64,000 nt of DNA, taken from Alphaproteobacteria bacterium (lineage in GTDB: Bacteria; Pseudomonadota; Alphaproteobacteria; MPNO01; UBA830). The notes below the pieces were generated by a model. It searched no databases and was not told where the DNA came from. It was given only the letters and a program-made list of their open reading frames with translations. The translations under genes and the position numbers were made by a program. This document shows, in pieces, positions 34,321 to 39,528 of the stretch. The DNA lies in assembly GCA_965243135.1 (NCBI GenBank), contig OZ251539.1, forward strand, positions 704,001 to 768,000, given 5' to 3'. Each line of letters opens with the position of its first letter. Position 1 is the first letter of the stretch.

Positions 34321-37300
34321 TTGACCGACGGGTTTCAGAGAACGCTGGATCACATCCGGACGATCGCCGGATCGCAAGCGGAGAAGGGCCGCCTGTTCGA
34401 GCGGCTGATGAAGACCTTCTTTGCCAAGGATCCTCTCTATGCGGAACGCTTTTCGAATGTCCGGCTGTGGTCCGAATGGGCGGAGATCAGGCCGGAATTC
34501 GGCGGAAACGACATCGGCATCGACCTCGTGGCCGAAGAACGGGACGGCGGCTTCTGCGCCATCCAGTGCAAGTGCTACGCCCCCGGCACGACGATTTCGA
34601 AGCCCGACCTCGACTCGTTCATCGCCGCCTCGGCGCGCGATCCCTTCACGGCCCGCATCGTGGTCGACACCGGCGACGGTTGGGGCCCCAACGCCCTCAA
34701 GACCGTCAAGGGCCTGAAGCCGTCTTGCGGCGTCCTGCGTTTCGGCGATCTGGCCGGCCGGCCTTTCGACTGGCCGGATCTGGCCAGCCAGGAACCCGAG
34801 AATCTTTCGTGGCGGGGCGAGGCGTTCAGCCTGCGCCCGCATCAGCGGGAGGCTTTCGACGACGTGATCCGGGGTTTCGGGAACCGCGGCCGCGGCAAGC
34901 TCGTCATGGCCTGCGGCGCCGGCAAGACCTTCACGGCGCTGCGCATCGCGGAAGCCGTCGCCGGCGTCGGCCGGCGGGCGCTTTACCTGGTTCCGTCGAT
35001 CTCCCTCTTCCAGCAATCGATGCGCGAGTGGGCGACCCACCGGGGGATTCCGCACCGCTACGTCGGGATCTGCTCCGACACGCGGGCCGGCCGCACGGAC
35101 GAGGACGCCTCGATGGAGGAGCTGGAAATCCCGGTCACCACGAATCCGGACGCGATCCAGGAAGCGCTTCGTGGCACCGGGAACGACGCGATGACGGTGG
35201 TCTTCTGCACCTACCAGTCGCTGCCTCTGGTGGAGCGGGCGCAGGCGCAGGGCGCTCCCGGGTTCGATCTCGCGATCTGCGACGAAGCCCACCGGACGAC
35301 CGGCGTGGAAATTCCCGACAAGTCGACGTCTCCGTTCGTGCTGATTCACGATGCGAAGAAGATTGCGGCGGAGAAGCGGCTGTACATGACCGCGACGCCG
35401 CGCATCTATGCCGAGGGTGCGAAGGCGAAGGCGGCGAACCGGGCCGTCGAAGTGTTCTCGATGGACGACGAGGAAACCTTCGGGCCCGAGTTCCATCGTC
35501 TGCCGTTTTCGCGGGCGATCGCACGAAACCTGCTGTCCGACTACAAGGTGGTGATCCTCGTGGTGCGGGAGGATGCGGCGGATCCGGCGCTCCGGGCGCA
35601 TCTGGCCGAGGGCGACGGCGAGATCAACCTGACCGACGCGGCGAAGATCGTCGGGTGCTGGCGGGTGCTTCAGAATCCGGAGAACGCCGCCGTCTCCGCG
35701 CCGCTGGGCCGGGCGATCGCGTTCAACGGCAGGATCAAGGATTCGCAGAAGCTGGAGCGGCATTGGGGACCGATCGTCGCGCAGGCCGTGGAACTGTTGC
35801 CCGAGGACGAGCGTCCTGCGGATTTCCGGTGCGAGACCAAGCACGTCGACGGACAGCACAACGCGCTCGACCGCAAGCGGCGGATCGAATGGCTGAAGGA
35901 GGGCGATCGGAGCGCCTGCCGAATACTGACCAACGCGCGCTGCCTGTCGGAGGGGATCGACGTGCCGGCGCTCGACGCGGTGCTGTTCATGAGTCCGCGC
36001 AACTCGCAGGTCGACATCGTGCAGGCGGTCGGTCGGGCCATGCGGAAGGCGGAGGGCAAGGAGTACGGCTACATCGTGCTGCCGGTCGCCGTTCCGCCGA
36101 ACGTGGATCCGGCCCGGGCCCTGGACGACAACGAGCGGTTCGCCGCCGTCTGGGGCGTGCTGCGCTCCCTGCGTTCCCACGACGACAGGTTCAACGCGGA
36201 GATCAACAGGATCGACCTCAACGACACGCCCACCGAGCGAATCGTCATCTGGGACGGAAGCGACGAATCCGCCGGGAACGGCGAACCCTCTGAGCGGACG
36301 CTGCCCTTTCCGCCGCTCGACGTTCCGCCCGGCGCGATCTTCGCCAGGGTCGTCGAGAAATGCGGCGACCGGCGATACTGGGAAAGCTGGGCGAAGGACG
36401 TCGCCGACATCTTCGCGCGTCTGGTCCTTCGTATCGGAAACCTCCTGGACGATCCCGCCAACGAAGCCCTGCGCGAATGGTTCGACGCCTTCCTCGACGA
36501 ACTCAAGGCGTCGATCAACGATTCGATCACTCGCGCGGGCGCCGTCGACATGATGGCGCAGCACATTCTGACGCAGCCGGTCTTCGAGGCGCTGTTCGAG
36601 CGCTACGAATTCGCGAAGAGCAATCCGGTGGCGCGGGCGCTTGACGCGCTGCGGGAGGATTTCTGGGAATTCGGCTTCGAAAACGAACTGGAGGGGCTGG
36701 AGAGCTTCTACGAAAGCGTCCGCATGCGCGCTCGCGGCCTCGACAACAGCGCTGCGCGCCAGCATGTGCTGATGGAACTCTACGAGAAGTTTTTCGCGAC
36801 GGCGCTGAAGAAGGAAACGGATCGGCTCGGCATCGTCTATACGCCCGTCGAAGTGGTGGACTTCATCCTCCGCAGCGCCGACCATGCATTGCGGGAAGAA
36901 TTCGGTCGGTCCCTGAGCGACGAGGGAGTCAACGTGCTCGACCCGTTCACGGGTAGCGGCATCTTCCTCGTCCGGCTTCTCCAGTCGGAGTTGATCGCCG
37001 ACGCCGATCTGGAACGGAAGTTCGGCGGGGAACTTCACGCCAACGAGATCGTCCTCCTCGCCTACTACATCGCGGCGGTCCATATCGAAGAGGCCTTCCA
37101 CGGTCGGGGGGGGGGGCGGGTACGAACCGTTCAATGGCATCGCGCTTGCCGACACCTTCAACCTTCACACGGAGAGAACCGGTTTTCCGAAGGACTGGCT
37201 TCCCGGCAACAGCGAGCGCGTGGAACGGCAGCAGAACCTGCCGATCCAGATCGTCGTCGGCAACCCGCCGTGGTCGGCCTGGCAGAAGAATGCAGCCGAC

Positions 37301-39196
37301 GACAATCCGAATGTCGACTACCCGGAAGTCGAAAGCCGGGTCGCCGAGACCTACGCAGCGTGGTCGCGGGCGACGAACAAGAACAGCCTGTACGACACTT
37401 ACAAGATGGCGGTTCGTTGGGCGTCCGACCGCATCGGCGAGCAGGGCGTCGTCGCCTTCGTCACCAACGGGTCCTGGATCGACGGCAACGTCGATTCCGG
37501 CGTGCGGGCCTGTCTGGCGGAGGAGTTCACGTCCATCTACGTCCTGAACCTGCGGGGCAACGCGAGGACTTCGGGAGAACTGCGACGCAAGGAGGGAGAT
37601 AACGTATTCGGACAGGGATCCCGCGCGCCGGTGGCGATCACGGTGCTGGTCCGCAACCCGAAGGCGGACCGCGAGGACTGCCGCATCCTCTACCGCGACG
37701 TCGGGGACTATCTGACTCGCGAGGACAAGCTGGCCTTTTTGCGGGAGAAGGGATCGATCATGGGCATCGACGACTGGAAGGAAATCGCGCCCGACCGCCA
37801 TCACGACTGGATCGGGCAGCGCAGCGAGGAATTCGGGAAGCTCTATCCGATAGGTTCGAAGGACGCGAAGGCCGGCAAGACCGAAGAAGCGATATTTTCG
37901 CTGTTCAGCAACGGCTACAAGACCGGCAGGGATGCGTATGTGTACAATTTTTCCCGACGTGCTTGCGCGGAGAATGCCCGCCTGATGGTTGACGACTATT
38001 GCGATGCGCTGGAAGAATTCGAGGAAATTATGCGAGGCAAGAAAGACGTTTCAAAATTCGAAATAAATCAGATCGTCGACGATGTCGTATCCTCTAGCAG
38101 GCTGCATTGGGATCAGAAGTTAATAGATAATCTGAGAAGAAGAAAATACATAAAGTTCGAAGAACGTAATCTTTACAGGACAATTTATCGTCCATTTATT
38201 GCTATGAATTTGTACGCCGATCATTTCTTTGCTCAACGGAAATATCGGATGGATTTGATTTTTCCAAAGTTAGTTCGAGGCGAAAACCGTGCGATCTGCG
38301 TTCCGGGCATAGGATCGACCAAGCCGTTCTCCGCCCTCGTAGTCGATACGATGCCGGATCTGGAACTCGTATCTAAAAGTCAGTGCTTCCCGCGATACCG
38401 GTATCGGCGTTCGGAAAACACGCAGGACGAGCTTCCGGGGCTTGAGCCGAAACTCGAACGAGTGGACAATATCGCCGATACAGCCCTTCGAGTCTTTCGC
38501 ACAAAATACGGCGACAACTCCATCTCGAAAGACGCGATATTCGATTACGTCTACGCAGTCCTGCATCATCCGCGTTATCGAGAACGTTTCGCGAACGACT
38601 TGACCAAGGAATTGCCCCGCGTTCCGTTCGCGGCGGATTTCCATGCTTTCGCCGAGGCGGGGCGCAAACTCGCCGATCTTCATCTTCGATACGAGAGCTG
38701 CGACGAGTACCCGCTCGATGTCGAGTTTTCGGGTTCCGAAGAGCCTCGACCGGAACATTTTTGCCTCGGCGATCGGGCAATGCGGTTCGAGGACGACGAA
38801 AGGACAATCCTCCGTGTCAACGAGCACGTGAGCCTCCGCGGTGTCCCCGCCAAGGCGCACGAATACCAAGTCAACGGGAGAACCCCGCTGGAATGGTTTA
38901 TCGACCGTTACAGGATCGTGCAGGATCGCGAGAGCGGCATCGTCAACGACCCGAACGGCTGGTTCGACGACCCGCGTGACCTGATCTCTGCCATCCGCCG
39001 CGTCGTCCATGTCAGCGTGGAAACCTCGCGCATCGTCGCGGCGCTGCCCGAACCGTTTGCCGACGACGAAGCTGATCGGAGCGCGGCCGCTTTTCGGGCC
39101 GAAGCCCAACGCCAATCCCTTGTCGTCGCCCGGAGCCCGCAAGCGCAGGAGGACCAAGATTTTGTCGATGCCGTCACCGACTGGGGCGATGAATGA
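34321..39196 (+). CDS. Type ISP restriction-modification enzyme (Mrr-like nuclease, SF2 helicase, N6-methyltransferase, TRD), frameshifted at a G11 tract, with a C-terminal antitoxin-like tail
   Basis: KGRLFERL..DIGIDLVAE..AIQCKCY; LRPHQ, MACGAGKT, DEAHRTTG, MTATPR, CLSEGIDVPALD, QAVGR; LGIVYTPVEVVDFI, LDPFTGSG. After the shift: YEPFNGIALADTF, GNPPWS, NLRGN, DWIGQR, YRPF, SQCFP, YQVNGRTPLEW, NDPN. ORFs 34321-37602 and 37220-39196 join if one G is removed. Confidence 0.9.
37106..37116 (+). repeat. G11 homopolymer at the frameshift point
   Basis: cacggtc-ggggggggggg-cgggtacgaa. G10 or G13 restores the frame (HGRGGGGYEPF). Confidence 0.9.
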
Positions 39197-39528
39197 AGCG
39201 CGGATGGACGGTTTCAGGAGGAGGAGACTATACGGGCAAACCCCATCCCGCAGTGATCGTTCAGGACGACGGATTCGACGGAACCGCCTTGATCGCGATC
39301 TGTCCCTTCACGACCGACACAGCCGAAGCGCCGTTGATGCGCCTCCCAATCGAACCTGACGGGCGAACGGGCTCGATGCGCTGTCTCATGGTGGACAAGA
39401 TCGCCACTGTATCGACACGGAAGATCGGCAGGCGGACCGGCGAACTCGACAGAGAAGACATCGAACGGCTCGATCAGGCGATAGCCGTTTTCCTCGGCTT
39501 GATGGTTTCGCAAGAAGACATGTGCTGA
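39193..39528 (+). CDS. mazF: PemK/MazF-family toxin
   Basis: GGGDYTGKPHPAVIVQDD, ICPFTT, LMVDKIATV, IGRRTGELD..RLDQAIAVFLGL. ATGA overlap with the R-M stop codon. Confidence 0.85.
   Translation: MKRGWTVSGGGDYTGKPHPAVIVQDDGFDGTALIAICPFTTDTAEAPLMRLPIEPDGRTGSMRCLMVDKIATVSTRKIGRRTGELDREDIERLDQAIAVFLGLMVSQEDMC

Follow-up and report, generated by a model that had tools for sequence, protein, structure and literature searches.

Can a restriction enzyme double as the antitoxin of a toxin gene that follows it? This question is raised by a locus in a 64,000-nucleotide stretch of DNA from an alphaproteobacterium (contig OZ251539.1; hereafter the window, viz. G000:C1:704001-768000, within which all positions at the locus are counted), where the gene for a Type ISP restriction-modification (R-M) enzyme ends in a segment resembling one half of a MazE-like antitoxin and runs into the start of a PemK/MazF-family toxin gene. 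R-M and toxin-antitoxin (TA) systems are usually viewed as separate defence layers that are merely adjacent to each other, and PrrC is, to our knowledge, the one textbook case of an RNase restrained by a restriction enzyme, an isolated curiosity. On the evidence presented below we favour, with moderate confidence, the reading that these genes constitute a hitherto undescribed two-gene unit, in which a Type ISP enzyme carries a grafted MazE-like neutralising peptide and is overlapped by mazF, and which would make the R-M gene addictive. The general architecture is the point of interest; the copy in this genome is probably an inactive example of it. The features of the locus are as follows:

34321..37116, plus strand: Type ISP R-M gene, 5' part, in frame 1, with Mrr-like nuclease, superfamily 2 (SF2) helicase-like ATPase, coupler and the start of the methyltransferase (DPFTGSG)
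37106..37116, plus strand: run of 11 G, which puts the Type ISP gene out of frame and lies in a loop of variable length and sequence among homologues
37117..39058, plus strand: Type ISP R-M gene, 3' part, in frame 2, with the methyltransferase motif NPPW and the C-terminal specificity domain, ending ...VETSRIVAALPEPF
39059..39193, plus strand: 45-residue tail fused in frame to the enzyme, equivalent to the toxin-binding C-terminal half of MazE-like antitoxins (Pfam PF11455 match)
39193..39196, plus strand: ATGA junction, read directly from the sequence, in which the TGA stop of the enzyme (39194-39196) overlaps the mazF ATG
39193..39528, plus strand: PemK/MazF-family gene of 111 amino acids (aa), open and atypical (PF02452 match)

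The enzyme is identified as Type ISP by its domains. In Pfam searches the N-terminus matches PF13156 Mrr_cat_2 at residues 36-159 (E 1e-32), the 5' part also matches ResIII (7e-21), Helicase_C (9e-9) and ISP_coupler (9e-41), and the 3' frame matches PF18135 Type_ISP_C (7e-92) up to residue 589 of 658. The methyltransferase domain scores under the Pfam cut-offs (N6_Mtase, 19.4 bits vs. 20.4; Eco57I, 18.8 bits vs. 25.3), and the methyltransferase motifs DPFTGSG and NPPW are both present in the translation. The PADLOC model REase_MTase_IIG is covered by the two enzyme parts at positions 5-971 and 1019-1637 of 1646. The order of Mrr-like nuclease, SF2 ATPase, coupler, putative N6-adenine methyltransferase and C-terminal specificity domain is the one found in the single polypeptide of Type ISP enzymes of the LlaGI/LlaBIII type, and NCBI labels plasmid homologues of the C-terminus 'type ISP restriction/modification enzyme'. 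The window gene differs from these enzymes in that it has 45 extra C-terminal antitoxin residues and a coupled toxin gene, and in that it is split by a frameshift at the G run instead of encoding one uninterrupted polypeptide. The first-pass annotation of this DNA had recognized a Type ISP R-M enzyme, an identification that the Pfam domains uphold, but had overlooked the 11-G frameshift that makes its frame discontinuous.

The same annotation had claimed that the frame runs past the usual Type ISP end into the C-terminal half of a DUF3018/MazE-like antitoxin, that the N-terminal half of this antitoxin is absent, and that the enzyme stop overlaps the PemK/MazF start; all of this is borne out. 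In the translation of the window, the plus-strand frame ending at 39196 reads ...VSVETSRIVAALPEPF, then ADDEADRSAAAFRAEAQRQSLVVARSPQAQEDQDFVDAVTDWGDE. The match to the PADLOC R-M model stops at residue 611 (of 658) in the 3' frame, and hence the tail lies outside the profile of the enzyme family; tail-less homologues have their C-terminus approximately 5-25 residues past the LPEPF motif, and a tail-less paralogue in the same genome likewise ends near it. A hidden Markov model search with the last 45 aa alone matches PF11455 MazE-like (formerly DUF3018) at positions 25-65 of 65 (E 4e-7) with 30.4 bits against a curated cut-off of 22 bits, which rules out a tail without DUF3018 similarity. Stand-alone PF11455 antitoxins from other genomes are about 74 aa long and cover positions 2-65 (E 1e-26). 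The onset of the fused tail coincides with the ...F(R)AEAxRQS... segment of these stand-alone antitoxins, and the N-terminal ~35 antitoxin residues are therefore absent (profile positions 1-24 are unmatched). The E-D-Q-x-F-x-D-A...W residues of the stand-alone antitoxins are kept in the fused tails, the window tail agrees with the family at 15 of the 15 columns with a conservation of 90% or more (80 rows), and the stretch joining ..LPEPF to the conserved tail differs between homologues in both length and sequence. Directly past the ATGA junction at 39193-39196, the downstream open reading frame (ORF) matches PF02452 PemK_toxin at positions 15-109 of 109 (E 1e-16). A search of NCBIfam with the tail, with MazF and with the enzyme's 3' part gave no match, and the genome itself (G000) holds no second PF11455 or MazF copy.

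Does the tail bind the toxin? In an AlphaFold model of the 3' part of the enzyme (mean predicted local distance difference test score, pLDDT, 66.4), averaging over ten-residue blocks gives 39-59 in the tail vs. 84-92 in the preceding helix, and the tail is thus predicted to behave as a loose, low-confidence appendage of the enzyme. A co-fold of the tail with two MazF chains, bearing on the idea that the tail engages a MazF dimer, reached an interaction prediction score from aligned errors (ipSAE) of 0.41 (runs 0.41, 0.42, 0.35) vs. 0.16 for the best of three controls, with at least 85% of contacts in common between runs and a partner pLDDT of at least 63, but it was graded as weak support. The mark used for such co-folds is reached by 58 of 80 solved complexes and by 2 of 110 mismatched pairs, and at an ipSAE of 0.60 or less it is passed by just 7 of those 80 complexes and by both of the passing mismatches. 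Binding of the tail to MazF is likely on homology and synteny, and it is weakly backed by this modelling. No solved relative of the antitoxin family was found by sequence, the best match (E 0.055) being a ribosomal protein.

The fusion is a conserved architecture and not an accident, as judged by comparison of homologous sequences. A genome scan with one genome per species yielded 80 loci; in 6 of these the tail ends an open frame of 1,620-1,681 codons, and the other 74 are stand-alone antitoxin genes. The six fused loci come from two Alphaproteobacteria metagenome-assembled genomes (MAGs), a Thalassobaculaceae MAG, a Bryobacterales MAG with two copies and a Gammaproteobacteria MAG. A MazF homologue abuts or overlaps the stop in all six, mazF is found at the same junction in 73 of the 74 stand-alone loci, and the junction is ATGA or GTGA in most of the 80 loci. 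Searching long proteins for matches to the last 119 residues yielded 659 hits. Among the 120 best of these Type ISP clusters, 21 (1,589-1,636 aa) carry the MazE-like tail, and two more beyond the 21 have a truncated (P0066) or a degenerate (P0018) one. Other Type ISP proteins with the tail, a search for which had been suggested in the first-pass annotation, are found both among genomes, there upstream of mazF, and among protein clusters, and a unique chance deletion is ruled out by the six other fused loci and the 21 clusters. The fused tails elsewhere are 41-77% identical to the window tail and occur across three phyla-level groups. In a quick tree of 106 full-length enzymes, from which the last 70 residues had been removed, tail-bearing enzymes are spread over at least five separate clades among tail-less ones, although the tree counts events unreliably because it includes the recombining specificity domain. 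A search with the tail only among long proteins gave 0 hits at E <=0.01 and 19 candidates, and is uninformative since a 45-aa query is too short for a database of this size. A profile search of 1.84 billion representatives returned 630 hits at E <=1e-3, among which just fragments of 70-466 aa span both the enzyme end and the tail, and which give no count of full-length fusions.

A second tail was encountered in the same enzyme family. Ten of the best 120 Type ISP clusters (of 659) end in ...GGILAALRRSPLVGxxIDLTRxxEEGREVVL, which resembles the end of a VapB-type antitoxin, a sequence that also closes stand-alone proteins of ~95 aa, which lie on metagenome contigs upstream of genes starting (V/M)TRYLLDTNI.... 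Pfam recognized neither this tail by itself nor three stand-alone antitoxins ending in it. A 1,616-codon Type ISP gene (1616 aa) with the second tail (L084:303-5593, also L085) overlaps a PIN-domain (PIN/VapC) gene (PF01850, 3e-11) by GTGA; L084 and L085 are possibly one contig filed twice and represent the sole full-length gene of this kind that was recovered. One enzyme family hence carries the toxin-proximal ends of two antitoxin families, with the predicted cognate toxin downstream in each case. As a separate observation made by eye, the stand-alone MazE-like and VapB-like antitoxins share a similar N-terminal motif, RERLRAQGLRPIQIWV vs. RSRLSERGLARFEVLG, in the contexts ..HRERLRAQGLRPIQIWVPD.. 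(MazE-like; L016, L018 and others) and ..YRSRLSERGLARFEVLGLD.. (VapB-like; L090, L092 and others), which suggests that one N-terminal module is combined with different toxin-specific tails.

How might such a unit work? In intact members of the family the enzyme itself would be the antitoxin, and a single flexible tail bound to the MazF dimer would keep the RNase silent. The DNA-binding half of the antitoxin is lacking, so that expression would follow the R-M promoter, and translational coupling would bind the output of toxin to that of finished enzyme. Because the tail is translated last, any loss of full-length enzyme production would end the supply of antitoxin while MazF persists; gene loss, a truncating mutation, phage host shut-off or proteolysis of a presumably labile tail may all act as triggers. 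A single-chain R-M gene cannot kill by outlasting its methylase, both activities being those of one protein, and the module would make a gene of this kind addictive; it could double as an abortive-infection backup.

Compared with ordinary pairs of a MazE-like antitoxin and PemK/MazF, the unit shares the toxin family, the toxin-proximal half of the antitoxin and the overlapping stop/start junction. It differs in that the N-terminal ~35 residues of the antitoxin (..KVREHRERLRAQGLRPIQIWVPD.., presumed to be DNA-binding or dimerising) are replaced by an enzyme of ~1,600 residues, and autoregulation by the antitoxin would therefore be lost. CapRel, EzeT and Rpn/RpnS resemble it in having a neutralising segment within a larger protein (PMC10865869 and PMC10327210); in CapRel, EzeT and Rpn that segment is fused to its own toxin or nested in it, whereas here it sits on a separate defence enzyme and the toxin is a gene of its own. 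A DUF3018/MazF-like pair is described as a putative plasmid stability determinant of Pseudomonas syringae in PMC6354349, one of three papers in which mentions of DUF3018 were found. The literature searched, outside of which lay the supplementary tables of the TA surveys PMC2701414 and PMC10440598, yielded no report of an antitoxin segment joined to an R-M enzyme. What appears new is hence the architecture of R-M enzyme and antitoxin tail; TA systems of type II are known, as is the coupling of an RNase to an R-M system in the manner of PrrC. If the favoured reading is true, an antitoxin peptide placed inside a restriction enzyme, with two unrelated toxin families, would provide a simple molecular link between the R-M and TA layers, and would explain by what means an R-M gene for one polypeptide could turn addictive.

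The alternative that survives best, and which we regard as possible without thinking it probable, is a guard of the PrrC kind: MazF would be latent on the enzyme and be freed specifically when a phage inhibits, titrates or degrades the latter, providing a second, abortive line that senses anti-restriction. The architecture and synteny behind it are identical to those behind the favoured reading, and the joining of two unrelated toxin families to one enzyme family in the same manner suggests selection for the enzyme link. A precedent exists: the Type Ic enzyme EcoprrI keeps PrrC silent, and a T4 inhibitor of this enzyme activates it (PMC1484252 and PMC2610378). As with PrrC (PMC1484252), the gene of an RNase, MazF, is linked to that of a translocating R-M enzyme, and the latency of MazF here is presumed. 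The likeness ends there, since PrrC is bound non-covalently, shows no kinship to MazF, being an ABC-ATPase/anticodon nuclease, and responds to a known phage trigger, whereas the window toxin has just the PemK_toxin domain in Pfam and its latency would come from a grafted antitoxin peptide. The trigger of a guard is hypothetical in this case, no phage inhibitor of Type ISP enzymes having been found (nor was a search aimed at one), and from established knowledge of type II TA systems release of a MazE-type partner normally proceeds via proteolysis of the tail and not via inhibition of a fused domain. Gene neighbourhoods speak on both sides: a STAND protein with NACHT and HEAT domains (PADLOC candidate PDC-M54A) directly 3' in L005 and L006 makes for a defence-type setting, but the surroundings are metabolic in the window, L007 and L008, L004 has HipA upstream and MutL downstream, and the window copy is off. 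We rank addiction, or a lock on gene integrity, somewhat ahead of a specific anti-restriction sensor. A broader generalization, which we offer tentatively, would hold that Type ISP enzymes have repeatedly been armed with interchangeable MazE-like or VapB-like tails, so as to carry and silence an RNase that is released upon loss or block of the enzyme; this would be a modular, covalent equivalent of PrrC-EcoprrI that guards the R-M gene against loss and also senses phage counter-defence.

Is the copy in the window functional? Its enzyme frame is interrupted: frame 1 (from 34321) and frame 2 (to 39193) meet solely across the 11-G run at 37106-37116, by a +1 frameshift situated ~2 kb upstream of the tail. 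The 5' part enters the run as ...IEEAFHGRGGG, after which the continued frame 1 is nonsense until a stop at 37602 (ORF 34321..37602), and ...GGGGYEPFNGIALADTF... and the remaining enzyme including the tail lie in the next frame after the run, which is open to 39196 and whose earliest start codon is a GTG at 37220. A run of 10 or 13 G would yield a single frame of ~1,625 codons, reading ...HGRGGGGYEPFNG.... The six fused homologues and the paralogue are uninterrupted, unlike the window enzyme, and no G run is present at the loop in any of the six. The paralogue, an uninterrupted Type ISP gene of 1,634 codons in the same genome (G000:C1:2857555-2862459, minus strand), is 91-99% identical to the window DNA over 34424-37800 and 72-85% identical in part of the specificity domain. 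Its DNA homology to the window ends at ~39040-39060, which is the tail onset; its C-terminus, ...LPDVFTEGRS, lies 5 residues past the equivalent of ...LPEPF, and it has neither tail nor mazF. At the same loop it has 17 G, in frame (...HGRRGGGGGYEPFNG...). Because so similar a gene has 17 G at this loop, we read the frameshift in the window as a phase-variable OFF state: from the comparison of the two genes, the 11-G state looks like the OFF phase of a phase-variable contingency locus, the variation in length being presumed. In addition to the run itself, the 5' part of the enzyme (34321-37104) shows 118 window-specific vs. 52 L004-specific changes (p 4e-7) when compared with L004 and L005, and a relative-rate count over the 3' part is balanced (57 window-specific vs. 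53 L004-specific changes). The excess in the 5' part, together with the 91-99% identity to the tail-less paralogue, suggests that the 5' part including the G run was exchanged between the paralogues.

Phase-variable R-M genes are found in Campylobacter, Neisseria, Helicobacter and others, and the window gene resembles them in having a long G run in an R-M frame that is out of frame as sequenced; several R-M-like genes of G000 also carry runs. In Helicobacter pylori, the C-terminal part of frameshifted Type ISP genes is by itself an active methylase, and those frameshifts are stated not to be caused by repeats (PMC3936762). The host also differs, G000 being a 6.1-Mb genome of 65% G+C. An unlikely but not negligible alternative is that the frameshift is a homopolymer miscall in the assembly, in which case the enzyme would be intact in the cell and the module armed apart from the substitutions in its toxin. 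Runs of 11 bases are generally known to be error-prone in long-read assemblies, the gene contains no other break and its nuclease, ATPase, coupler and specificity domains score strongly. Against a miscall, the Logan contigs of run X6 (37054-37249; 0 differences, 0 gaps) and of run X7 (37038-37333; 3 differences, 0 gaps) both read 11 G and show no indel, although these two runs may be the assembly's own source and hence not independent of it. Contigs from a third run, X1, end at the G run, and contigs in general hide minor variants of tract length.

The toxin in the window also departs from its family. Among 74 aligned relatives it differs at 8 of the 49 columns that are at least 90% conserved, viz. 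His18 for Arg (97% Arg), Leu33 for Ser (99%), Ala35 for Thr, Thr14 for Ala, Thr59 for Asn, Cys64 for Arg, Asp94 for Asn and a missing Leu (99%); two short segments are absent, EI after MKRG and two loop residues that include this 99%-conserved Leu. The tail in the same module is unchanged (0 of 15 departures). At the position of His18, 77 of 79 loci have Arg by eye, with one His and one Cys elsewhere, and the Arg is kept in five of the six other fused loci (in L006, as far as its break). The family profile matches solved MazF chains at 1e-10 to 1e-8, and His18 occupies the alignment column of the R of ..RPAVV.. in the solved chains of MazF7 and MazF9. In a quick tree of MazF, the end branch of the window toxin measures 0.82 vs. 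a median of 0.14; this tree has 45 of its 72 forks open, and the number of fusion origins is not readable from it. A relative-rate count gives 16 window-specific vs. 6 L004-specific changes (p 0.05). A relative in run X1 that is 95-96% identical has C at 39290 and A at 39403, which by codon arithmetic restores the consensus residues Ser33 and Thr71. The toxin of the window thus looks degraded, with the conserved active-site Arg lost.

In view of this sequence evidence, the module in this genome is probably off or decayed. The proposal of the first-pass annotation that it is a guard system is accordingly sustained for the identity of the tail and the conservation of the fusion, but not for the local copy, which with a frameshifted enzyme and a MazF having His18 and seven other departures is probably no armed guard here. 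The order of decay, viz. enzyme OFF, toxin degraded and tail intact, would fit a history in which the toxin was disarmed before the enzyme was switched off. L006 (6222-6404) fits likewise: its enzyme and tail are intact, and its MazF is homologous for ~33 residues and then continues into unrelated sequence. We note separately that in this locus the toxin has been lost and the tail kept. None of the seven fused loci, a small sample, combines a broken enzyme with an intact toxin. The window copy, which joins a hypermutable switch in the enzyme gene to a degraded toxin, may hence be regarded as a natural experiment.

Decayed copies of this kind also bear on a further alternative, which seems to us improbable, that the fusion is a neutral relic: a mazEF cassette would have landed behind a Type ISP gene, the two frames would have been fused by a deletion, and the product would have spread with the mobile R-M gene without any function beyond that of a repressor-less TA pair. 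The patchy distribution of the tail in the enzyme tree agrees with this, as do the decayed forms (the window, L006 with its truncated toxin, P0066 with a truncated and P0018 with a degenerate tail) and the rarity of the fusion, just the fragments of 70-466 aa having covered the whole profile among the 1.84 billion representatives. A neutral relic is harder to reconcile with conservation over three phyla-level groups at 41-77% identity to the window tail, with the retention in the tails of residues conserved in the stand-alone antitoxins, or with that of the toxin Arg in five of the six other fused loci, and it would need an independent repeat with a second antitoxin/toxin family. Least probable of all, in our judgement, is a gene within a gene, in which translation starting inside the enzyme gene, near its 3' end, would be the main source of the tail as a small antitoxin of its own, and the fusion would be incidental; small C-terminal domains of Rpn proteins are translated separately as antitoxins (PMC10327210/PMC10400941), and such a product would silence MazF here despite the upstream frameshift, but there is no Met codon in the last 100 codons, the sole in-frame GTG near the tail (..SVET..) has no preceding purine-rich stretch, the first start of the downstream frame is the GTG at 37220, 1.8 kb upstream, and the variable linker between LPEPF and the tail shows no conserved start.

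Several points weigh against the favoured reading of an addictive enzyme-antitoxin unit and against our interpretation of the local copy. Binding of the tail to MazF rests on homology, synteny and a co-fold graded as weak. In PLSDB, 132 plasmid records match the Type ISP C-terminus and none of them has the tail, which sits oddly with a role purely in plasmid addiction; moreover, addiction and abortive infection are not told apart by the present evidence. With regard to phase variation, the contigs of two runs, possibly from the source samples, all read 11 G, and four genomes of the same genus that were searched have no match to the tail or mazF, hence they supply no close strains for a comparison of tract length (one genome of the same order, G039, has a match that runs into mazF). 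With regard to the toxin, the conserved Arg of the ..RP(A/V)V.. motif is one that we take to be catalytic from work on the Escherichia coli and Bacillus subtilis MazF proteins, a His at this position is also found in 1 of 79 other loci and a Cys in 1, and the rate excess is marginal, being 15 vs. 6-7 changes with other outgroups (p 0.08-0.13). Since the toxin ORF is open and both its deletions are in frame, the window MazF may be active or serve another role. The pairing of a frameshifted enzyme with a degraded toxin is a single case.

The surroundings of the module vary between loci. In the window, judged by eye from the translations, a DctP-type solute-binding gene lies on one side and a LigB-type dioxygenase gene on the other, followed by ATP-binding cassette (ABC) permeases, and this neighbourhood is not a defence island. 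In L005 (6656-11218) and L006 (6455-10945) a protein of ~1,500 residues with NACHT/AAA and HEAT-repeat regions is encoded directly 3' of mazF on the same strand; it matches PDC-M54A with E 3e-15 and could represent an additional, module-linked defence gene. In L004 the fused Type ISP gene is closely preceded by a HipA_C kinase-toxin gene (L004:157-1158, E 7e-51) and has MutL downstream. Neighbours are metabolic in L007 and L008, and L009 has a tetratricopeptide-repeat (TPR) protein.

Long G/C runs are also found elsewhere in G000. The genome contains 62 G/C runs of 9-21 bases vs. 14 of length 8 and 80 of length 7; there are ~5-8 runs at each length from 9 to 17, several of them within very long open frames or right at their beginning, and this flat tail of run lengths is unexplained by base composition. 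Runs of at least 12 G occur in 19 of the 41 related genomes searched, G000 included, and are most numerous in G002. Taken together, the runs of G000 suggest that this environmental lineage possesses numerous contingency (phase-variable) loci. Four further genes of G000 that are similar to the N-terminal part of Type ISP enzymes have runs of 17, 17, 15 and 21 bases (G000:C1, at ~83194, 178125, 793994 and 2085613, respectively). One of these runs is in a methyltransferase-like region (DPACGTG...), apparently out of frame, one is between helicase motifs, in frame, and one forms a poly-Pro stretch within the specificity domain of a Type ISP paralogue at 45% identity; the 15-base run at 793994 sits ~500 bases past the matched part (which extends to 793489), and the other three (17, 17, 21) are inside an open frame. 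Pfam searches of 10 other open frames with G/C runs gave just one He_PIG domain and a sub-threshold N6_Mtase match. A run of 20 C at G000:C1:183204 is located ~20 codons into a stop-free frame of ~14,000 codons with a He_PIG Ig-like domain, which may encode a phase-variable giant surface protein. A close relative of G000 occurs in a run labelled sponge metagenome.

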